From the IMG/VR virus record IMGVR_UViG_2548876944_000018: a DNA stretch of 12,453 nt; one strand, given 5' to 3'. Source of the DNA: a virus. Its lineage: Duplodnaviria; Heunggongvirae; Uroviricota; Caudoviricetes. A program made the position numbers and the translations under genes. Below are positions 2,567-11,436 of the stretch, in pieces. The notes under the pieces were generated by a model, which saw only the letters and a program-made list of their open reading frames with translations, was not told the DNA's origin and did not search any database. The stretch's first letter is position 1; each line of letters opens with the position of its first letter.

Positions 2567-2986
2567 ATGCTAAAAACTAGGCTTATCACCGATTACATCA
2601 ATTCTTTAATAGGTCAGGAGTTCGTTCAAGGCGAGAATGATTGCAATATAATTGCATGTAAGATCATCGATATTCTCGCTGGTACTGACCTATATAATTC
2701 TCTTTATAAAAAATATTCAACGAAAGAAGAAGGCTTGAAAATCTGCAAAGAATTAAGCGGATACACAAATATCCTTCAACCAATTAAGAAACATTTCAAA
2801 CTAGTCACTGATGATTTACAGGACGGCGACTTACTGGTCACAGCCCACAAATTAGGAAACCGCAAATATTATTCCGTAGTTCCTCATTATTCCGGTTATG
2901 GCCTCGTTGAAGAAGATGGTATCTGGATGACCATTCCTGTTTCAGACATTGACTATGAACAAGTTTATAGATTCGGGGGTGAATAA
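2567..2986 (+). CDS. Tail assembly/tail tip protein (gpK position), possibly NlpC/P60-like, about 139 aa
   Basis: The track ORF starts at 2552, but the ATG at 2567 has GGAGGT 7 nt upstream. Its stop overlaps the J-like ATG (TAATG at 2984-2988). It contains a DC dipeptide (GENDCNII) and downstream His residues, loosely reminiscent of a Cys-His peptidase. The call is mostly positional. Confidence 0.5.
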   Translation: MLKTRLITDYINSLIGQEFVQGENDCNIIACKIIDILAGTDLYNSLYKKYSTKEEGLKICKELSGYTNILQPIKKHFKLVTDDLQDGDLLVTAHKLGNRKYYSVVPHYSGYGLVEEDGIWMTIPVSDIDYEQVYRFGGE

Positions 2987-5900
2987 TGGGATTTGAAATA
3001 TTAGTAGGCGCGGTTATTGCTGGTGCGTCTGCTGGGATGGCTGCTGCTGCAACATTTTCTGTTATGACCGCAGTCGCTATCGGTATGGCTGCTGGTGCAA
3101 TGACCTTGATCGCTTCCACTGTAGGCGCACCAAAAACACCGAAAGTACAAAGCTCAGATAATGCGGTGACACTAGGAACATCAAACGATCCGAAAGCGGT
3201 GATACCAGTCGTTTTCGGTACTACCCGCACTGGCACAAACTGTGTTTACAAAGCAGTTTCTAAGCAAGAAAACAATAAGCTAGTGCAAATCTTCTCTGTA
3301 GCCGAGGGTGAAATCGACCATTACAAAGCACTCTTTATTGATAATAAAAACGTTCTCATTAGCCAGAATATGACAATTCGTGATGGCATTCTCGATAAAG
3401 GAAACATTAAAGACGAATACCGCAAAGTGTTAGAAGTCGAGTTTCGCACTGGTAAAAATCCTAACACTGCATTGGATCTGGCTAAACATCATTTGGGCGC
3501 AGATTGGGATGATCGGTATCAGGGTAACGGCATTGCGACCATGTGTATTGTGTTACGTCGTGACGATAAATCTTTGGCTGCTGGTGTTGATATCCTTCAA
3601 CCAAATAGCCAAGTGGCAGTCGATGTTATGGGCTTAAAAATCCGTAACCTCGAAACCAATGCTATTGAGGCAAGCACTAACGGCGTGGACCAGATTTTCC
3701 ATTATCTGACAAATACAAAGTATGGTCTTAGTGTACCGATTGAAAATATTAACGTTGATTCATTCCTGAAAGTGCGTAAACAAGTACGCCAGATGGACCT
3801 ACATTCCAACGGTGCATGTGATCCGAACGCCAGCTTTAAAGAGAACTTGACCAGTCTTATGCAGACTTTCGGCGGGGTAATGTTCGAATCCTTCGGAAGA
3901 ATTACCCTGAAACTGGATGCTCCTGATATTGTTAAGCATACCTTCAATGAAGACAATATCATGATGGGTAAGGTATCACTGAAAACAGGTGGCACTAACG
4001 GTTATTTCAATACCATTAACGCGATGTATCAAGAACCATCAATCGACTATTCAGAGCAAATGCTACGTTATCCGGCTGATGCTGAAAACGATGCTACTAT
4101 TCGTCAAGATGGTCGAATTATCGCTAAAGATATTGAATATCGTTTTGTTAAGTCTAAAGCCCAGATTGATAAACTAGCGAGTGTAGAACGAAATAAATCT
4201 CGTATCACTCAGGTTATCAGCTTTATGACTACTGACGCATTCACTGCCGAAGTGTGGGATGTTATTAGCGTTACCTATGATGAATTGAAACTGAATAATT
4301 CACTTTGGCGCATTACTGCAATTGATCGTTCTATTGATTCTGGTATTGCTGGGATGATGACTATCACCGCTACAGAATATAATTCTCAGGTTTATACTGA
4401 CCTGAACTATGCGGCGACTCCAGACAATAGACCTACTGGTTTACCGGATTCAATGACAGTACAGAAGCCTACTAATTTCAGAATTAAGGCAACTGGTGAG
4501 ACAATCCACGGTAAAAACGTAACTTTGACATGGGATGCACCGGAAGATTTCAACCGTTATGGTTTCCAGATTGATTATCGTGTGAGTGGATCACCTAACT
4601 GGATTAAGCTGGGACAGACTTCACAGCAAATTTTCAATATCAATGCACTGGCAAAAGATCGCTCCTACGATTACCGCGTTTGTGCTTTCGGTATTATTGC
4701 TCGTTCCGAATGGGTGGAACTGGTTAACCAGAATCCTACTGTTACCTATGAATTGCCTACGCCAGTGATCCGCATCAAAAATCAGGGTAGTTCACCTGGT
4801 ACTTTCGAAGGCAATGATCTGATTATCGAATGGGAAAATCAGCAACAATTAGATGTGATGATCAACGGTGAAGCTAACAAGTTTAGTGACCTGTTTGAAG
4901 CATACATTATCAAGGTAACTAACAAGGCTGGTAAGTCTATTCAGTACCGTACCCGCGATCCTGAATCATGGACTTATACGCTTGATATGAACCAGTTTAA
5001 CGGCCTTTCGCGTCAATTGACGGTAGAAGTATCCGTTAAGGGCTATAACAACTCAGAGAGCGCCCCAGCGCGTTTAGTGGCTATCAACCCACAACATAAG
5101 CCGATGAAAGGTTTTAGTGCGCGTGGTGGCTTTAATACTGCGTTTGTTAGCTGGGCGGATGACGTAGAACATGACTATGCAGGGTCAATCATTCAGTATG
5201 CAACCGATAACACTTTCTCCGATGCAAGGGCAGTGACTACCAATAGCGTTAGTCATACTTCCTTTGATTTGGCTGACGGTGATTATTATATCCGTGGTGC
5301 TCACTATGATATTTTCGGTATGGATGATGCTGTTTGGTCCGAACCGTATTTCATGCAAATGAAATCTACCATTAGCTGGGACGATCAGGACAAAGAAGCA
5401 CTGGAAGACCTGATCGGTTTACAAGATCGATTAGATGAAACTATCGCGGATGCTATTAAGCAAGCTGGCGCTAATGCCGATGCTAAAATTGATGCAATGC
5501 ATAAACAGATTACTACCGAGACAGGGCAGACGGTCCAAGCCTCAGCCGATACTCTCAAGAGTCTGATTGCTACCAGTGAGCAAGCCAGCGCAACTAAGAT
5601 TGATCAGGTTAAAGCTGAACTGAAAGGCGATATCACCAAAGAAGTTAGCGCATCCGCTACTACCCTGAAACAAGCAATTGCTACCAGTGAGGCAGCAAGC
5701 GCAAGTAAGATTGATCAAGTTCGGGTAGAAATGGATGGCAAGATTGCTGGTGTGAATCAGGAAGCAGATGTAAAAATCGATGCTTTGAAGGGAACCATTA
5801 ACAGCAAATATAATCTGGCAGTTAATGCAGATGGTCGCGTGGCTGGTATTCATATGAGCGCAACCAATGATCCGGCAGAACCGACAAGAATCATCTTTAC

Positions 5901-6732
5901 GGCTGATAAAATCGCGGTAGCTCCACAAGACGGATCCGAAGTTTGTCCGTTTGGCATCGAAGATAACAAAGTTTATCTTGATAATGCGATGATTCGTAAT
6001 GCTGCAATTGGCACAGCCCAGATTAGTGATGCGGCTATTACCACGGCTAAGATCGGCACAGCCCAGATTAACGGCGCTCACATCCAACACGCACAGATCG
6101 GAACGGGTCATATCATTGATGGCTCTATCGATAATGCTAAAATTGGTAACTATATCCAGTCTTATAACTGGAATGGTAACGATGGATGGTATATCGGCAA
6201 AGATGGCACTTGTCATTTTAGACACGCTAATATTCGTGGTCATTTGGTGGCTGATTCCGGCGAAATGAACAACGTAACGATTAATTCAAGTTGCCGCATT
6301 TTGGGTATGCTTGATGCTAATCAGGTGCGTGGTGACTTCGTGAAAGTGGTTGGTAGGAGTTTCCCACATCGTCAACCAAACTGGCCTGATGGTGCAATCA
6401 CTGTAAGGGTCGAAGATGATCATCCATTCGATCGCCAAATAGTGATTCCAGCGATTCATCATAACGGGTCTGTTCGTCGTGGCGAAAGTAGCGATCATTG
6501 GGATACTTGCCGACTAATCGTTAAGAAAAATGGTGGTGTTCTATATGATCGCACTGCAACTTCTGGCTGTATGTACAGTGGAGTTATTGACATGCCAGCC
6601 GGACACGGGGCAGTAACAATGACTTTTGAAGTTTACTGTAAGGGCGTTAACAACTATAACCCAAGTGCATATATCAGCGATCTAACGGTAATGGTAACTA
6701 AGAAAGCCGCTACTGGTATTTCTGTTTCTTAA
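2986..6732 (+). CDS. J: Host specificity protein J-like central tail fiber / tail tip protein, 1248 aa
   Basis: A 3.7-kb ORF at the end of the tail operon with a GGGGG Shine-Dalgarno. The middle contains fibronectin-III-like segments (for example NVTLTWDAPEDF...YDYRVCAFG). The C-terminal ~130 aa contain DDHPFDRQIV, VIDMPAG and MVTKKAATGISVS, which closely match the lambda gpJ C-terminal receptor-binding region as I recall it (DDHPFDRQIV, IVDMPAG, MVIKKQALGISVV). Confidence 0.9.
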   Translation: MGFEILVGAVIAGASAGMAAAATFSVMTAVAIGMAAGAMTLIASTVGAPKTPKVQSSDNAVTLGTSNDPKAVIPVVFGTTRTGTNCVYKAVSKQENNKLVQIFSVAEGEIDHYKALFIDNKNVLISQNMTIRDGILDKGNIKDEYRKVLEVEFRTGKNPNTALDLAKHHLGADWDDRYQGNGIATMCIVLRRDDKSLAAGVDILQPNSQVAVDVMGLKIRNLETNAIEASTNGVDQIFHYLTNTKYGLSVPIENINVDSFLKVRKQVRQMDLHSNGACDPNASFKENLTSLMQTFGGVMFESFGRITLKLDAPDIVKHTFNEDNIMMGKVSLKTGGTNGYFNTINAMYQEPSIDYSEQMLRYPADAENDATIRQDGRIIAKDIEYRFVKSKAQIDKLASVERNKSRITQVISFMTTDAFTAEVWDVISVTYDELKLNNSLWRITAIDRSIDSGIAGMMTITATEYNSQVYTDLNYAATPDNRPTGLPDSMTVQKPTNFRIKATGETIHGKNVTLTWDAPEDFNRYGFQIDYRVSGSPNWIKLGQTSQQIFNINALAKDRSYDYRVCAFGIIARSEWVELVNQNPTVTYELPTPVIRIKNQGSSPGTFEGNDLIIEWENQQQLDVMINGEANKFSDLFEAYIIKVTNKAGKSIQYRTRDPESWTYTLDMNQFNGLSRQLTVEVSVKGYNNSESAPARLVAINPQHKPMKGFSARGGFNTAFVSWADDVEHDYAGSIIQYATDNTFSDARAVTTNSVSHTSFDLADGDYYIRGAHYDIFGMDDAVWSEPYFMQMKSTISWDDQDKEALEDLIGLQDRLDETIADAIKQAGANADAKIDAMHKQITTETGQTVQASADTLKSLIATSEQASATKIDQVKAELKGDITKEVSASATTLKQAIATSEAASASKIDQVRVEMDGKIAGVNQEADVKIDALKGTINSKYNLAVNADGRVAGIHMSATNDPAEPTRIIFTADKIAVAPQDGSEVCPFGIEDNKVYLDNAMIRNAAIGTAQISDAAITTAKIGTAQINGAHIQHAQIGTGHIIDGSIDNAKIGNYIQSYNWNGNDGWYIGKDGTCHFRHANIRGHLVADSGEMNNVTINSSCRILGMLDANQVRGDFVKVVGRSFPHRQPNWPDGAITVRVEDDHPFDRQIVIPAIHHNGSVRRGESSDHWDTCRLIVKKNGGVLYDRTATSGCMYSGVIDMPAGHGAVTMTFEVYCKGVNNYNPSAYISDLTVMVTKKAATGISVS
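5539..5760 (+). repeat. Imperfect tandem duplication of about 111 bp (37 codons) inside the J-like gene
   Basis: ATTGCTACCAGTGAG occurs at 5566-5580 and 5677-5691, and AAGATTGATCA(G/A)GTT at 5596-5610 and 5707-5721, both with a 111-nt offset. The peptide units are ASADTLKSLIATSEQASATKIDQVKAELKGDITKE and VSASATTLKQAIATSEAASASKIDQVRVEMDGKIAG. Confidence 0.75.
6001..6150 (+). repeat. Ten consecutive pentapeptide repeats (A-x-I-x-x) inside the J-like gene
   Basis: Translation reads AAIGT AQISD AAITT AKIGT AQING AHIQH AQIGT GHIID GSIDN AKIGN, with Ile at a strict 5-residue period. GGCACAGCCCAGATTA is repeated at 6010-6025 and 6055-6070. Confidence 0.7.
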
Positions 6733-6750
6733 AATTTAATTCTAATAATT

Positions 6751-6792
6751 AATCCCGCTTAATTCTTTTGAGTTAGGCGGGATTATTTTTAT
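6751..6792 (+). terminator. Rho-independent terminator after the J-like gene
   Basis: AATCCCGCTTAA (6751-6762) pairs with TTAGGCGGGATT (6773-6784): an 8-bp GC-rich stem plus 3 bp with one mismatch, around a 10-nt loop, followed by ATTTTTAT. Confidence 0.7.
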
Positions 6793-6837: not shown

Positions 6838-7116
6838 ATGACTGAAATTATATATGGCGGTATCGGTGTTATCGCCTTAATTTGTGGTGGGCTTTGGAGA
6901 CTTCACCGAAATCAATTAGCCACAGAAAATAGATTGTCGAAATTGGAATCCAGCGACGCATTGTTAAACCAGAAGTTTGAGACGATGCAGAATAACCATA
7001 CTCAGATTGCTGAACGTGTTTACCAAATGGAACAAACACTACACGGTATAGAGAAGAAAGTGGTTGCGATGGACGCCAAATTTGACCAAGTTCTCGACAT
7101 ACTCAAACAAAAATAA
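6838..7116 (+). CDS. Membrane-anchored coiled-coil protein, 92 aa (possible lysis or exclusion protein, holin/spanin-like)
   Basis: ATG with GGGGG 6 nt upstream. It has an N-terminal hydrophobic helix (IIYGGIGVIALICGGLW) followed by about 70 aa of charged, heptad-like sequence. No homolog was recognised. Confidence 0.6.
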   Translation: MTEIIYGGIGVIALICGGLWRLHRNQLATENRLSKLESSDALLNQKFETMQNNHTQIAERVYQMEQTLHGIEKKVVAMDAKFDQVLDILKQK

Positions 7117-7134
7117 TAATAAAGGGGTGAATAT

Positions 7135-7305
7135 ATGAAGAATAAACTTAAGAAATATTTTGGTTATCTCTTGATTGTCGCCCTCACTTATAACGTAGCT
7201 ATTAGACCTCTGCTAACGTCCTTTGGGCTTGAACTCCCGGCTATGACCGTGGATGAACAATTGCTAAGGACACTGGCGGGGGGCTTTTCGTTATTAGGGG
7301 GCTAA
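7135..7305 (+). CDS. Small membrane protein, 56 aa (not in the supplied ORF track)
   Basis: My own translation gives MKNKLKKYFGYLLIVALTYNVAIRPLLTSFGLELPAMTVDEQLLRTLAGGFSLLGG. GGGGTG lies 6 nt upstream of the ATG, and the ORF exactly fills the gap between neighbouring genes (TAA at 7303-7305, next ATG at 7307). It has a basic N-terminus followed by one hydrophobic helix. Confidence 0.5.
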   Translation: MKNKLKKYFGYLLIVALTYNVAIRPLLTSFGLELPAMTVDEQLLRTLAGGFSLLGG

Positions 7306-7306
7306 C

Positions 7307-7990
7307 ATGGCAACCAGTACCAATAAACGAAACGCTCTAAGGACAAAGAAAGCGTTACGCCAATGGACTGATAAAGCAACCGATACATTCGAAAGGGCGA
7401 TAGGTGAAGGGGCGATCTTTGCTGCTCGTGCACTCCAGAAGAAGATTAACAAGAATGTTGATAGACCTACTCGATGGACTCAGCAAGCTGTAGGTAATAC
7501 CAACTACAAGAACCGATCAGGGACGAGACACCAAATCTTCATCAAGGGCGCAAGGGATAAGGACAAGAAGATCGGCAGTCAGGATGACTATCTGAAACAC
7601 TATTTCGATGGTGGCAAAATCAATAAGCTAGTGCCAATCGCCAACGGCAAGGTCTTAGACTCCCACGGGAACATTAAGGCCATTAAAGGCGGTAAGATGA
7701 TGCGTAACATCGAAAACGGCAACTTCATCAAGGTAGAGAACAAGGAAGGGACTTTTATCATGAAGAAGTACAAGCCTAAGAAATCCCGAACCAAACGCGC
7801 TAAGAATGGATCGGCGGTGGCAAAACGTCGCTTAGAGAAACGCATCCAGAAACAGAGTAAGCGAATTGTTGCCGTTAAGTCGGATAAAATTTCTACTCGT
7901 TATTCGACGCTAGGATCGTGGGAAAGCAACGAGGAAATGATGCTTAAGAACATTAATAAGCACATTAAATCGCGCATGAGATACGTTTAA
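7307..7990 (+). CDS. Highly basic (Lys/Arg-rich) hypothetical protein, 227 aa
   Basis: ATG with GGGGG upstream, tightly packed with its neighbours. Basic residues are abundant throughout, especially KKYKPKKSRTKRAKNGSAVAKRRLEKRIQKQSKR near the C-terminus. No catalytic motif was recognised. Confidence 0.7.
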   Translation: MATSTNKRNALRTKKALRQWTDKATDTFERAIGEGAIFAARALQKKINKNVDRPTRWTQQAVGNTNYKNRSGTRHQIFIKGARDKDKKIGSQDDYLKHYFDGGKINKLVPIANGKVLDSHGNIKAIKGGKMMRNIENGNFIKVENKEGTFIMKKYKPKKSRTKRAKNGSAVAKRRLEKRIQKQSKRIVAVKSDKISTRYSTLGSWESNEEMMLKNINKHIKSRMRYV

Positions 7991-8028
7991 TCCATAAATA
8001 CCCTCATAGAATCTTATGGGGGTATAAC

Positions 8029-8376
8029 ATGGCTAAAAATATTTTCACTGAATTTCCTACTTATCCGGTCGATCAGCTTTCCGGTATTTTTATTAATGGC
8101 ATTAGCCCAGAATCAATGACCTATGATTTTGAGGCGAAGAGAGTTAAACATAAACAATATAAAGAATGTATCCGCGATCATGAAAAAGGGACCGTGTTTT
8201 GTGTCGCTACATTGGCTAAACGTCCTAAATATCGTTTTCGTGTAGGGCAAGAAGTTGATGTGGTTAATCCTTATAGCTTTAACTGTCTGGGCGATGCACG
8301 CGCGGTGTGTGTAGGTACTGCTCCTTATTACATCAAGGGTATGCGCTTTATTGGTTATATCTTCGAAATGATCTAA
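8029..8376 (+). CDS. Hypothetical protein, 115 aa
   Basis: ATG with TGGGGG upstream; the Shine-Dalgarno lies in the 3' arm of a short hairpin (CCCTCATA / TATGGGGG with one G-U pair). No motif was recognised. Confidence 0.65.
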   Translation: MAKNIFTEFPTYPVDQLSGIFINGISPESMTYDFEAKRVKHKQYKECIRDHEKGTVFCVATLAKRPKYRFRVGQEVDVVNPYSFNCLGDARAVCVGTAPYYIKGMRFIGYIFEMI

Positions 8377-8385
8377 GGGGGTAAT

Positions 8386-8739
8386 ATGTTAAGCAAACAT
8401 TTTTCTCGCAAGGAATTTAAATGTAAATGCGGAAAATGTGATTATGATACAATCGACGCTGAATTACTGGTAATTCTTGAGGATGTACGAGAGCACTTCG
8501 GGAAGCCAGTAATTATTAACAGTGGGAACCGTTGTCCGACTCATAATAAGAATGTTGGCGGCGCAACCAATAGCTATCATGTTCGAGGCCGTGCGGCTGA
8601 CATTGTTATCAAGGGTGTCTCACCTGATATTGTTCATGCTTATCTTGATGGGAAATATCCTACTCAATACGGCTTAGGAAAATATAAAACATTTACGCAT
8701 ATCGATTCCAGATCAAAAAAATCACGGTGGAATGGATAA
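8386..8739 (+). CDS. Peptidase M15 family (DD-/LD-peptidase fold) cell-wall hydrolase, probable endolysin, 117 aa
   Basis: AGGGGG Shine-Dalgarno. FSRKEF...INSGNRCPTHNKNVGGATNSYHVRGRAADI matches the conserved SG(Y/N)R...HN...GG...S.H..G.A.D core of small phage M15-type peptidases. A CKCGKC cysteine cluster lies near the N-terminus. Confidence 0.8.
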   Translation: MLSKHFSRKEFKCKCGKCDYDTIDAELLVILEDVREHFGKPVIINSGNRCPTHNKNVGGATNSYHVRGRAADIVIKGVSPDIVHAYLDGKYPTQYGLGKYKTFTHIDSRSKKSRWNG

Positions 8740-8929
8740 AACAAAAGCGCCTCTGGTGGGCGCTTTTTTGTTAGAATATGCTGGCGACGTTAGCTATATT
8801 TCTGACCATTTTTTCATTATAGACAAATATACCGCAGACGATAAAGTCGTTTTTGACGAAGTAGATCCGTCTCTGGTTGAAGTAATGAAAGAACCGGAAG
8901 ACCTAGAGCTTGATTTAAGCCAATTATAG
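8732..8929 (+). CDS. Doubtful small acidic ORF, 65 aa
   Basis: The ATG overlaps the last 8 nt of the M15 gene and the frame reads straight through the terminator hairpin. No properly spaced Shine-Dalgarno is present (GGTGGA ends 1 nt before the ATG). The C-terminus is strongly acidic (EVMKEPEDLELDLSQL). Confidence 0.2.
   Translation: MDKTKAPLVGAFLLEYAGDVSYISDHFFIIDKYTADDKVVFDEVDPSLVEVMKEPEDLELDLSQL
8743..8770 (+). terminator. Rho-independent terminator at the end of the plus-strand block
   Basis: Perfect 9-bp stem AAAAGCGCC (8743-8751) / GGCGCTTTT (8759-8767) with a 7-nt loop, followed by a T6 run. The upstream A tract makes it potentially bidirectional. Confidence 0.8.
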
Positions 8930-9011: not shown

Positions 9012-9269
9012 CTATGATTTATTTTCTTGTTCTATGAAAATCTTTCTCACCTCATCAGAATAAATGTCTAGTGATTCCTCATAACATTTTCTGTATTCAT
9101 CGTAATTACTGGTGGTCTTTTGACATAGCAATTTCAATGTCTTATGTGCTCCATCAATGAAAGCATCTTTTCTATAGGTTAGCGGTCTACGCATTTCTTG
9201 GTCTACGGTTGCCAATGCCAAGCAAGAATTCATAGATAAAATCAAACCTAAAATCTTAATCATCTTCAT
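9012..9269 (-). CDS. Small secreted protein with a signal peptide, about 85 aa
   Basis: The track start at 9284 is TTG. The first ATG (9269) gives MKMIKILGLILSMNSCLALA followed by TVDQ, a typical signal peptide with an A-x-A site. The mature part has two Cys residues. The ATG lies 4 nt after the recombinase stop. The region is AT-rich. Confidence 0.6.
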   Translation of the reverse strand: MKMIKILGLILSMNSCLALATVDQEMRRPLTYRKDAFIDGAHKTLKLLCQKTTSNYDEYRKCYEESLDIYSDEVRKIFIEQENKS

Positions 9270-9273
9270 TAGC

Positions 9274-10953
9274 TTAAATTCCAAATTCTTGTAATGGACC
9301 TGGTATTTCTTCTTCTGGTTTCCAGTTCTTATCTGTCAGCATGTCTAAACATGGATGCAGAACAAGCCCGTTACTCTCCAGAATCTGCCTATCATTGATA
9401 GTCTTCAAATCAACGAAGATCCGGCCTTTCCTCGGTCCTCTTGAATTTTCTATTACAACTCTCTGGGTCTTGCCATCGATGTATTCCAGTACAAACAAGT
9501 TTTTGTACTTGTCAATCCTGCTACACCCGATCCGTTTTAGAGCTTGCTTAATCTTAAACCGGACCTTAATGCGATCCTCGTTGTAAACATCTTCTAAATC
9601 AAATTCTGCGAGCTTCTCCCAGCCTTGAGAGTCAACAGAATACATTTCCTCTTCTGCCATCTTAAGTTGATTGTAGAGTGTTTCACGCTCGCTATTGAGG
9701 GTAGTAATCTGATCGGCTAGCTCCTTCGTTGCTCCTGTCATAGCAGAAAGGGTAATCAGGTTATCAATCTTGCGTGATATTTCATCAATCTGTACTTTCA
9801 AAGCCGGAACCGGATTAGCCTTATCTTCAGCAATCCAGATTTTATCAGCCAGCAATTGCAATACAGCTTTCTCTAATTGGTCGCCGCGAAAACTCCAGTT
9901 TGTATGCACACATTCAATACGACTAGAGCGCATTGCATCGCATGAATAACGATATTGGTTAGGCCGTCTGTTTGTTCCTTTCACCTTAACCATAGCGGAA
10001 CCGCAATGTTCACATTTCAATAGACCAACACCACTAAGCAAGGGAATAGGTTTAGCTTCTTCTTTGTCTCCAAAGTTACATGCTCTAACACCAATGCTTT
10101 TCTTAAGGTGATAAAACTCAGCGTCATCTAGCACACGAGGATAATAATCCTTTAACTCATACTTAACGCCATCTACAGAGATTTCCTTGATACCAATCAA
10201 AGCGCGGGTATGGAACAACCTTTCAATCATTGCCCGTGACCAGTTTGAATGCCTCTTGTGACTTGCGGCTGGTGGTGGTGTGTATGTCGCGTTAAGGTGA
10301 TCCAGTATCTCGGCGGTTGACCGTCCATTCCTGCGTAATTCCACAACTTCCTGAACAATAGGGAAGAAGACCGGATGAGGAAGCACATAACCAGATGTGG
10401 TATCAGTCCACCACATATTCTTTCCAATTTCCTCGATTGCAACAGCCGGATTTTGTGGATTTTCTTGATGAGCTTTAATCTTAATCAGTGCGCTTGAGTT
10501 AGTACGATTGCGCTTAGTCTGGCTTTCCTCATTACCACGGATGAATAAAAGGATGGAGAACATCAGGTCCATCGGGTTAGCGGTAACAGTATCAAGCGAG
10601 TAGATCTTGTTATCCATGCCAGTAACAATGGTTATCCCCCTACGGATGATTGAAAGGAATAACTCCTGCGCACTGACAATATCGGCACGGGATAAACGGT
10701 CCAAGTTTTCGATGAATAGCCAGCTACCAACAGGAACGGATCTACCTATTGCATCAAGGAAACGAGATAGCGCCCCTGTTTTGGAGTTAGCACCCTTAAA
10801 CGCAGATACACCCAGATCCTGATAATCATTTACCAGTTCAAGGTCATACTTTACCGCAATCTCTCTAGCCATCCTGATTTGTCGTTCATAACTCGAACCA
10901 TCATTCTGACGCATAGACGAGAAGCGAATATACGAATACAGTTTAGTTTTCAT
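9274..10953 (-). CDS. Large serine recombinase (serine integrase family), about 559 aa
   Basis: N-terminal resolvase-type catalytic motif YSYIRFSSMRQ...SYERQ with the nucleophile Ser near residue 10. A Cys-rich zinc-ribbon segment (CEHCGSAM...YRYSCDAMRSSRIECVH) and a coiled-coil region (ALKVQIDEISRKIDNLITL...) follow. The track start is TTG at 10968; the ATG at 10953 is preferred. Confidence 0.9.
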   Translation of the reverse strand: MKTKLYSYIRFSSMRQNDGSSYERQIRMAREIAVKYDLELVNDYQDLGVSAFKGANSKTGALSRFLDAIGRSVPVGSWLFIENLDRLSRADIVSAQELFLSIIRRGITIVTGMDNKIYSLDTVTANPMDLMFSILLFIRGNEESQTKRNRTNSSALIKIKAHQENPQNPAVAIEEIGKNMWWTDTTSGYVLPHPVFFPIVQEVVELRRNGRSTAEILDHLNATYTPPPAASHKRHSNWSRAMIERLFHTRALIGIKEISVDGVKYELKDYYPRVLDDAEFYHLKKSIGVRACNFGDKEEAKPIPLLSGVGLLKCEHCGSAMVKVKGTNRRPNQYRYSCDAMRSSRIECVHTNWSFRGDQLEKAVLQLLADKIWIAEDKANPVPALKVQIDEISRKIDNLITLSAMTGATKELADQITTLNSERETLYNQLKMAEEEMYSVDSQGWEKLAEFDLEDVYNEDRIKVRFKIKQALKRIGCSRIDKYKNLFVLEYIDGKTQRVVIENSRGPRKGRIFVDLKTINDRQILESNGLVLHPCLDMLTDKNWKPEEEIPGPLQEFGI

Positions 10954-10960
10954 ACCATTT

Positions 10961-11002
10961 CCAAACAAAAACGCCCCTACCGCGTATTATAACGATAGGG
11001 GC
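10961..11002 (-). terminator. Rho-independent terminator immediately upstream of the recombinase gene, with TATAAT in its loop
   Basis: On the minus strand: GCCCCTA(T)CG, loop TTATAATACG, CG(G)TAGGGGC, then GTTTTTGTTTGG. The T tract ends about 8 nt before the recombinase ATG. Confidence 0.6.
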
Positions 11003-11016
11003 TAGGTGATTAAAGA

Positions 11017-11436
11017 TTAAAGAATTTCACGGCAGCTAATCAGGGAATAAGACGTATCACCTTTTTTAACATCAAATATAGGCGCGCCATCTACAGAATG
11101 CAGATATTTGATGTAGGATTTACCATCTTCGGAACCATAATATTCTTCTTTCTCGTTCTTATCTCCTTTCAGTTTTGGGCTTTTGATTGTTTTATCAAAT
11201 ACCGGATCGTTGAAAGCAAATTGACTATTATCATCATTCACTCGAACCTTTACACCGATAAAACCACGGTATTTGCCAGACGGCGCATGATAATAACGGT
11301 CGCCATCACTCAGGTAGCGTGTATCATCTCCTTTATATTCGAAGTAGGAATTGCACACATAATAGGTATAGGTATTAGCATTCGCAGCACCAACCAAACC
11401 CAGAGCAAGAACAACACCAGCGATAATCTTTTTCAT
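11017..11436 (-). CDS. Secreted (periplasmic) Tyr-rich protein with a signal peptide, 139 aa
   Basis: Strong Shine-Dalgarno (AAGAGGAAA) upstream. The N-terminus MKKIIAGVVLALGLVGAANA followed by NTY is a canonical Sec signal peptide. The mature protein has one Cys near each end. No homolog was recognised. Confidence 0.7.
   Translation of the reverse strand: MKKIIAGVVLALGLVGAANANTYTYYVCNSYFEYKGDDTRYLSDGDRYYHAPSGKYRGFIGVKVRVNDDNSQFAFNDPVFDKTIKSPKLKGDKNEKEEYYGSEDGKSYIKYLHSVDGAPIFDVKKGDTSYSLISCREIL

Follow-up and report, generated by a model that had tools for sequence, protein, structure and literature searches.

The DNA stretch analysed here (12,453 nucleotides of the IMG/VR virus record IMGVR_UViG_2548876944_000018, referred to in full length as the window) carries, directly behind a J-type tail tip gene, five consecutive genes, A to E, the last of which encodes an M15-type peptidase. 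We interpret them as the terminal late transcription unit of a temperate siphophage, in which lysis and virion completion are combined. A probability of about 0.45 was assigned to this reading, because all functional roles are ones that we infer. In the proposed course of events, E would accumulate in the cytoplasm, unable to cross the inner membrane alone, and B, probably with A helping or timing, would make the lethal membrane lesion that releases it; the cytoplasmic coiled coil of A, together with its Gly-rich membrane helix, could drive oligomerization. C, a putative distant relative of the lambda gpZ/HK97 gp10-type tail-completion (Neck1) proteins, would serve virion completion, and D, as a small β-barrel partner of C, would finish the tail at its head-proximal end. 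In function, the block is most likely ordinary; it is built from unrecognized families (A, B, and D) together with a very divergent C. Such a mixture would not be unprecedented, since in phage P2 the lysis genes adjoin the tail-completion genes R and S.

Four open reading frames (ORFs), A–D, were found between the J gene and the M15 peptidase gene, all on the plus strand and with the boundaries given in a first-pass annotation of the window. The five genes and the two transcription terminators that bracket them are as follows.

6838-7116, plus strand: gene A, 92 amino acids, a coiled coil preceded by a hydrophobic helix (residues 4-20)
7135-7305, plus strand: gene B, 56 amino acids, a basic N-terminus and a single hydrophobic stretch, no Cys
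7307-7990, plus strand: gene C, 227 amino acids, pI 10.7, 57 Lys and Arg residues, member of PHROG 1924
8029-8376, plus strand: gene D, 115 amino acids, an orphan modelled as a small β-barrel
8386-8739, plus strand: gene E, 117 amino acids, predicted Peptidase_M15_3 endolysin
6750..6785, plus strand: intrinsic terminator after J, a 16-bp stem followed by a U-run, upstream edge of the unit
8743..8767, plus strand: intrinsic terminator after E, a GCGCC stem followed by U6 directly past the endolysin stop codon, downstream edge of the unit

A GGGG or GGGGG Shine–Dalgarno sequence precedes every ATG from A to E. Comparison with four diverged relatives gave nonsynonymous divergence far below synonymous divergence (pN far below pS) in all five genes, and the ratio of nonsynonymous to synonymous substitution rates (dN/dS) was 0.10-0.23 for A–E where synonymous sites were unsaturated, the 56-amino-acid B included. 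A–D are under purifying selection; the claim of the first-pass annotation that four genes lie here was thus confirmed by the reading frames, by the ribosome-binding site in front of each, and by their conservation. The RNA fold of the post-J terminator has an energy of −24.2 kcal/mol (z −6.9). Over five lineages, 98.7% of the cells of its hairpin alignment were paired and three pairs carried compensatory changes, versus 35-61% pairing in slid controls. The post-endolysin terminator (−14.7 kcal/mol, z −3.4) was kept in all five lineages aligned, and both hairpins are conserved in the E. coli, Salmonella, and Providencia relatives. Because of the close spacing, the GGGGG ribosome-binding sites, and the bracketing terminators with their compensatory changes, A–E is regarded as one unit bracketed by conserved terminators. 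A hydrophobic ORF embedded in the M15 gene (8522-8677) has a GTG start and no Shine–Dalgarno sequence and was set aside. A literature search by RefSeq protein accessions found no paper.

Of 5426 complete E. coli genomes, 55 carried the 2.25-kb region, in most cases with an identity of 95-99%. The gene order J-A-B-C-D-endolysin was also found in Salmonella (loci L001 and L023), in a second E. coli type (L005), in L014, in Providencia (L004), in Buttiauxella (L018), and in another enterobacterial lineage (L012/L013). The GenBank record of phage DCP80 has this order too, in a siphovirus-like block with unannotated analogues of A and B. The gene after D always encodes an endolysin, but the endolysins fall into three types without relationship to one another: M15_3 in the window, M15_4 in L012 and Buttiauxella, and a GH24 lysozyme in DCP80. 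Endolysins of all three types lack a hydrophobic N-terminus. Two insertion-bearing E. coli strains carry extra DNA (a GIY-YIG nuclease and additional ORFs) downstream of the endolysin terminator, with A–E uninterrupted; other E. coli matches to the 2.25-kb region list IS1 under the match. Since the order recurs across genera, dN/dS is 0.10-0.23, and the strain-specific insertions lie downstream of E, A–D are core genes and not cargo. The A–E block is a core part of this phage family, and the cargo slot lies past the endolysin.

The prophage family that bears A–D is rare. Only two loci among 185,579 species representatives matched D, one of them a contig of a Rikenellaceae metagenome-assembled genome with 79% identity. 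In tblastn searches of 50,697 phage genomes, C, D, and a diverged A homologue gave no match, and a diverged B homologue found only itself. A scan of viral contigs with the Providencia homologue of C gave no match either.

Judged by its profile matches, E is a cytoplasmic Peptidase_M15_3 endolysin: the Pfam model (PF08291) was matched with an E value of 1.1e-27 (96.7 bits versus a cut-off of 23.2) and phrog_894 (endolysin) with 1.9e-45, and E is 60-64% identical to the endolysins of SP6-like podophages. The protein contains neither a signal nor a signal-arrest-release (SAR) segment (maximum hydropathy 0.72); lacking an export signal, it requires a function of the holin type. Of all genes annotated in the ~36-kb prophage, only A and B encode small membrane proteins; the remaining hydrophobic segments are found in the tape measure, at the N-terminus of J, and in two signal peptides. 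Each of the two has one hydrophobic segment, and both are encoded in the terminator-bracketed unit together with E. By this context, A and B are the best holin-level candidates. The first-pass annotation had named both flanking genes correctly (J, Ig_GpJ_C, 1.5e-34; Peptidase_M15_3, value above) and had considered the two membrane proteins as holin or antiholin components, which is reasonable in the light of these data. Its remark that their separation from the endolysin is atypical did not hold for this family, in which C and D in between are the conserved state.

Like the lambda S/R cassette or a class III single-helix holin cassette, the block joins a signal-less cytoplasmic endolysin and the only small membrane proteins of the phage in one late unit. 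Unlike a canonical holin-endolysin cassette, it shows no holin-family homology, no dual-start motif, and no spanin, and two non-membrane genes separate the membrane proteins from the endolysin. An ORF with a lipobox was absent from every plus-strand frame of the cassette in four lineages, and no credible one was found in the whole prophage; a canonical spanin is thus absent from the prophage. Since B has no Cys, it cannot be an outer-membrane spanin subunit (o-spanin).

B is the best candidate for the holin. Its N-terminus is basic; next comes a long hydrophobic stretch with (Y/W)N in the middle, and beyond a Pro break the protein ends in a short amphipathic helix. The B-type proteins of the relatives keep all of these elements, with hydrophobic stretches of 24-30 residues. 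Wherever a C-D pair occurs, a homologue of B or an analogue of the same architecture is encoded upstream of C; such a gene also precedes C in metagenome contig L021, in which no D could be demonstrated. The stop codon of B lies 1 nt before the start of C, and this B-C coupling is conserved in the relatives. The dN/dS values of B were 0.12-0.23. A weak match was obtained to phrog_2024 (unknown function), at 0.006 for the copy in the window and 4e-4 for that of DCP80. RefSeq calls B in most strains and leaves it uncalled in E. coli EC24 (L019, 613-805), though the sequence is present; the 56-amino-acid gene, which the first-pass annotation had described as missed by its ORF list, is indeed easily overlooked.

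A is a candidate holin partner or regulator. Its single, Gly-rich hydrophobic segment (residues 4-20) precedes a continuous coiled coil of ~70 residues with an unbroken heptad repeat: in one register, 75% of the a/d positions are occupied by Leu, Ile, Val, Met, or Phe, a value reached by 0 of 2000 shuffled sequences. The dN/dS of A was 0.20. Homologues of A are confined to this prophage family; analogues of the same architecture occupy the same position in L012, Buttiauxella, and DCP80, and A is missing from L021. The membrane helix is Gly/Ala-rich with small-xxx-small spacing, which is kept in the diverged analogues. Its N-terminal flank is acidic and free of basic residues in all diverged homologues. 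In four of the five diverged homologues read, the acidic N-flank was accompanied by a basic WR[LI]H[RT] C-flank, and in DCP80 the C-flank is Lys-rich. By the positive-inside rule, this charge distribution predicts an N-out/C-in topology with the coiled coil in the cytoplasm. Weak PHROG matches of A include phrog_12015 (unknown function, 4e-5), and the sole match of the set to a PHROG holin was that of the L012 analogue to phrog_1296 (0.042, weak). This match and those of A-type proteins to an Rz-like spanin profile (0.001-0.036), though weak, speak for a part in lysis.

By architecture and position, A resembles Lcc6 of the Shewanella prophage LambdaSo: both have an N-terminal membrane helix and a cytoplasmic tail, the latter predicted for A, and both lie at the int end of the prophage. 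Lcc6 has 65 amino acids; its gene lies near int, and the protein is indispensable at the holin step (bioRxiv 10.1101/2024.01.23.576932). Unlike A, it has no reported coiled coil and serves a pinholin/SAR-endolysin system.

C is probably a gpZ-like or Neck1-like tail-completion virion protein. It has a pI of 10.7, with 57 Lys and Arg among 227 residues, and contains no signal or membrane segment. The family is small and diverged; a profile search of 1.84 billion proteins found only 12 representatives. C itself matched phrog_1924 (minor tail protein) over residues 28-181 at a borderline value of 0.0016, and 10 of the 14 aligned members of the C family matched this profile, the best at 2.4e-33. 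RcCronus gp44 (2.8e-57) and vB_DshS-R4C gp49 (2e-48) matched phrog_1924 strongly. An hhalign comparison of the C family with R4C gp49 gave a probability of 96.6% (E 5e-10), with the common motifs DRPTxFT, QxxYL..GG, and YGNI. R4C gp49 in turn matched phrog_27 (tail completion/Neck1) at 3.6e-5, collinear over ~145 residues, and Pfam Minor_tail_Z (lambda gpZ) at 0.013 (15.8 bits, under the cut-off of 23.9); the corresponding values for P0033 were 0.0055 and 0.11.

C and the Cronusvirus minor tail proteins are thus homologous by profile comparison, and the Cronusviruses are distantly related to the prophage, with portal and capsid proteins that are 25-26% identical and a tail-tip module in common. 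Unlike C, the Cronusvirus gene has neither B nor D beside it and is by itself the final gene ahead of cos and the terminase genes. In the Cronusviruses and in L021, the C homologue opens the structural operon, with the terminase genes coming next. The C gene of the window follows the tail tip gene, whereas gpZ-type genes lie between head-closure and tail-tube genes; the matches to the lambda gpZ/HK97 gp10 type (PF06763, PHROG 27) are sub-threshold and transitive.

D is possibly a virion neck or tail-end protein. Its 16 homologues all belong to this prophage family, and it follows C immediately in every enterobacterial lineage examined and in DCP80, with diverged copies in L012, Buttiauxella, and DCP80. 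The protein has no signal or membrane segment. An AlphaFold2 (AF2) model of moderate confidence (predicted local distance difference test score (pLDDT) 66, predicted template modelling score (pTM) 0.64) showed a small β-barrel that is PilZ-like or tail-tube-like; Foldseek searches of this model against PDB and BFVD returned nothing significant. Profile searches of PDB with the C and D families gave only chance-level matches (adenovirus pVI, 0.15; InaD PDZ, 0.38; SLAM6, 0.14). A PDZ assignment was rejected: a GIFINGISPES motif was seen, but the modelled barrel lends no support to a PDZ fold and the match was non-significant. The cyclic di-GMP-binding motifs of PilZ domains, RxxxR and (D/N)xSxxG, are absent from D and from its family alignment, and residues 1-37 of D include no Arg. 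From the PilZ domains of YcgR and MrkH, D thus differs by the lack of binding motifs and by an identity of only 4-11%, with the resemblance resting on a model of moderate confidence.

A neck gene outside its usual place has a precedent in the structurally solved relative R4C, in which the tail terminator gene lies after the J-like (megatron) and fibre genes (PMC10276861); a neck or tail-end role is therefore plausible for a gene at this position. A direct relationship to a gpU-like tail terminator was not detected, as hhalign comparisons of D with lambda U, the R4C terminator gp18, RcCronus gp20, and a 132-amino-acid protein of L021 were all negative. In R4C (L016, 17974-18617), terminator gene 018 is followed by a gene for a 69-amino-acid protein that has one membrane helix and ends in a charged tail.

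For A–D as a whole, no Pfam or NCBIfam model was matched at its cut-off, and in the direct PHROG scan the borderline match of C to phrog_1924 was the only one to pass the threshold. The statement of the first-pass annotation that none of the four proteins belongs to a recognized family therefore stands for A, B, and D and has to be revised for C, which joins PHROG 1924 with Cronusvirus members that are weakly linked to tail completion and gpZ. The profile and structure searches that it had recommended placed C in this way; they gave no established family for A, B, or D, and nothing significant for the fold of D. Of the two findings that together would have refuted the first-pass annotation, one was made, namely an arrangement conserved across the family; the other, confident homology of all four proteins to ordinary ones, was reached only for C, and there moderately.

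A number of observations weigh against a unit for lysis and virion completion. A, B, and D match no established family, and neither A nor B matched a described holin family in Pfam or NCBIfam. The idea, taken from a YNF..P motif, that B is a truncated GTA_holin_3TM protein was abandoned, as the Pfam model was undetected in six B-type proteins. B is translationally coupled to C and not to the endolysin, and in L012 a terminator lies between D and the endolysin. No component for disruption of the outer membrane was found, so that the account of lysis is incomplete. The connection of C to tail completion is transitive and sub-threshold: C of the window reaches only 0.0016 on phrog_1924 and has no match at threshold to Pfam Minor_tail_Z or PHROG 27, and hhalign comparisons of C with lambda Z and HK97 gp10 were negative. 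For C, an AF2 model built on a seven-sequence alignment had a pLDDT of 43, which made a fold search impossible. The model of the R4C virion comprises 12 structural proteins (PMC10276861), and gp49 is not one of them; nor is R4C gp49 present in PDB.

An alternative that we consider unlikely is that all four proteins form the lysis system, with B (with or without A) as holin and C and/or D in place of the missing spanin; for example, polycationic C would attack the outer membrane after wall degradation, similar to the cationic disruptin of phage phiKT. This would account for the absence of any o-spanin or unimolecular spanin (u-spanin) candidate from the cassette in four lineages and from the prophage, for the location of C and D, which separate the membrane proteins from the endolysin throughout the enterobacterial lineages, and for the conserved translational coupling of B and C. 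The content of Lys and Arg in C (57 of 227 residues) would suit such a role, and in most contexts seen, including L021 and RcCronus, only a few genes separate C from an endolysin, R4C, for which no endolysin is annotated, being the exception. Approximately 15% of phages do without spanins, whose place a cationic peptide can take (bioRxiv 10.1101/515445). However, the C family matches the virion families phrog_1924, phrog_27, and Minor_tail_Z, and conservation within C is lowest in its most cationic stretch, most of which the 188-amino-acid Providencia homologue lacks. Moreover, neither C nor D contains a signal or membrane segment, C with its 227 residues exceeds the known disruptin by far, and R4C retains a C homologue with no endolysin annotated beside it.

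A bolder version, to which we attach little probability, is that lysis of the Gram-negative host is spanin-less and that the coupled B-C-D trio, with A, constitutes a new envelope-disruption system. B would then deliver or activate the polycationic, gpZ-like C and the β-barrel D to breach the outer membrane; we regard this division of labour as similarly improbable.

It is also quite improbable that A is an Rz-type inner-membrane spanin subunit (i-spanin) with a periplasmic coiled coil and a non-lipoprotein partner, such as B, some other protein being the holin. An N-terminal membrane helix followed by a coiled coil is the i-spanin architecture, as in Rz/Rz1, and B directly follows A at the position of an o-spanin gene. 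The Rz-like spanin profile phrog_739 was matched by A at 0.036 and by its 153-amino-acid DCP80 analogue at 0.001, over positions 14-115 of 122. A also gave many unrelated Pfam matches to coiled-coil families, however, which indicates that coiled-coil profiles cross-match non-specifically. In addition, B without Cys has no lipobox and the cassette contains no lipobox ORF, so that a lipoprotein partner is lacking; the flanking charges predict a cytoplasmic coiled coil, opposite to the topology of Rz; and no other holin candidate would be left in the prophage.

That A–D are accessory cargo with a promoter of their own (superinfection exclusion, host range, or another moron), as the first-pass annotation had proposed from their place downstream of the tail fibre, and as their location directly behind the tail tip gene and a strong terminator and the two small membrane proteins, common among exclusion genes, might suggest, is very improbable and was given up: the block is present in every relative with its order conserved across genera from E. 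coli to Buttiauxella and in DCP80, it is under purifying selection, A, B, C, and D gave no PADLOC match at E <= 0.1, a scan of the window revealed no convincing sigma-70 promoter between the post-J terminator and A, the GC content of A–D (0.38-0.47) is similar to that of the rest of the window, and the variable region actually lies downstream of the endolysin terminator.

The window represents the right arm of a ~36-kb E. coli prophage and is 99.9% identical to E. coli PK8568. The prophage is integrated in hicB by a large serine recombinase, and the split halves of the hicB pseudogene are found at both ends. The tail tip gene and the recombinase gene, on either side of the A–E unit, are as follows.

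2986-6732, plus strand: J-type tail tip protein (Ig_GpJ_C, 1.5e-34; Phage_Tail_Tip, 8.8e-19), last of the plus-strand tail genes
9274-10968, minus strand: large serine recombinase, at the prophage end in PK8568

J starts with two strongly hydrophobic helices (residues 5-45, window 2986-3120), and J faintly matched phrog_32 (tail assembly protein, 0.28), as if a gpI-like segment were fused to J. Further upstream (1750-2520), a NUMOD3-type homing endonuclease (Pfam 1.4e-20; phrog_314 3.9e-32) is encoded between a hub-like tail gene and a DUF6950 gene, without a counterpart at the same site in Salmonella, Providencia, or other relatives. Rfam and tRNA scans of the window revealed no RNA genes. 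The prophage has a further unusual gene location in L002 (4604-9039), where a 277-amino-acid protein, the N-terminus of which matches phrog_158 (major tail protein, 1.9e-10), and then a 1176-amino-acid tail-fibre-domain protein are encoded between the head genes and the tail-tube gene.

In the slot behind the endolysin, 70 nt at 8829-8899 (within 8732-8929) match inh, which encodes the prohead protease inhibitor in RB49-like T-even phages, with ~90% identity. This stretch lies inside an acidic ORF of 65 amino acids, the 5′ end of which overlaps the endolysin stop codon and the terminator hairpin. UvsY- and UvsW-like genes occupy the same post-endolysin slot in relatives. Together, these similarities suggest that the post-endolysin cargo region exchanges DNA with T4-like phages. 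A 90-amino-acid ORF with a signal-peptide-like N-terminus, without annotation in RefSeq, lies between the cassette and the integrase (9012-9284, minus strand), and a secreted protein of 139 amino acids is encoded beyond the integrase (11017-11436, minus strand); both are probably cargo expressed in the lysogen.

The DCP80 record (PQ671644) comprises 141 kb and is classed as a T-even-type Gaprivervirus, yet it holds the siphovirus-like block and may be chimeric. Its unannotated A and B analogues (L008, 8835-9296 and 9774-9947) have a recombination endonuclease VII (endo VII) gene between them. In metagenome contig L021 (872-1611), endo VII is encoded immediately upstream of the B-C genes, and it may be a recurrent companion of the A–D module.

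If the proposed roles are true, A and B would represent new sequence families of holin-level proteins, and lysis genes would be interleaved with tail-completion genes in a siphophage. The assignments would also aid the annotation of ~1% of complete E. coli genomes and of related Salmonella prophages. With C, a tractable homologue from enterobacteria is available for the gp49 family, which the virion model of R4C lacks, and with no spanin in the prophage, a handy E. coli system would be at hand for studying how spanin-less phages breach the outer membrane.

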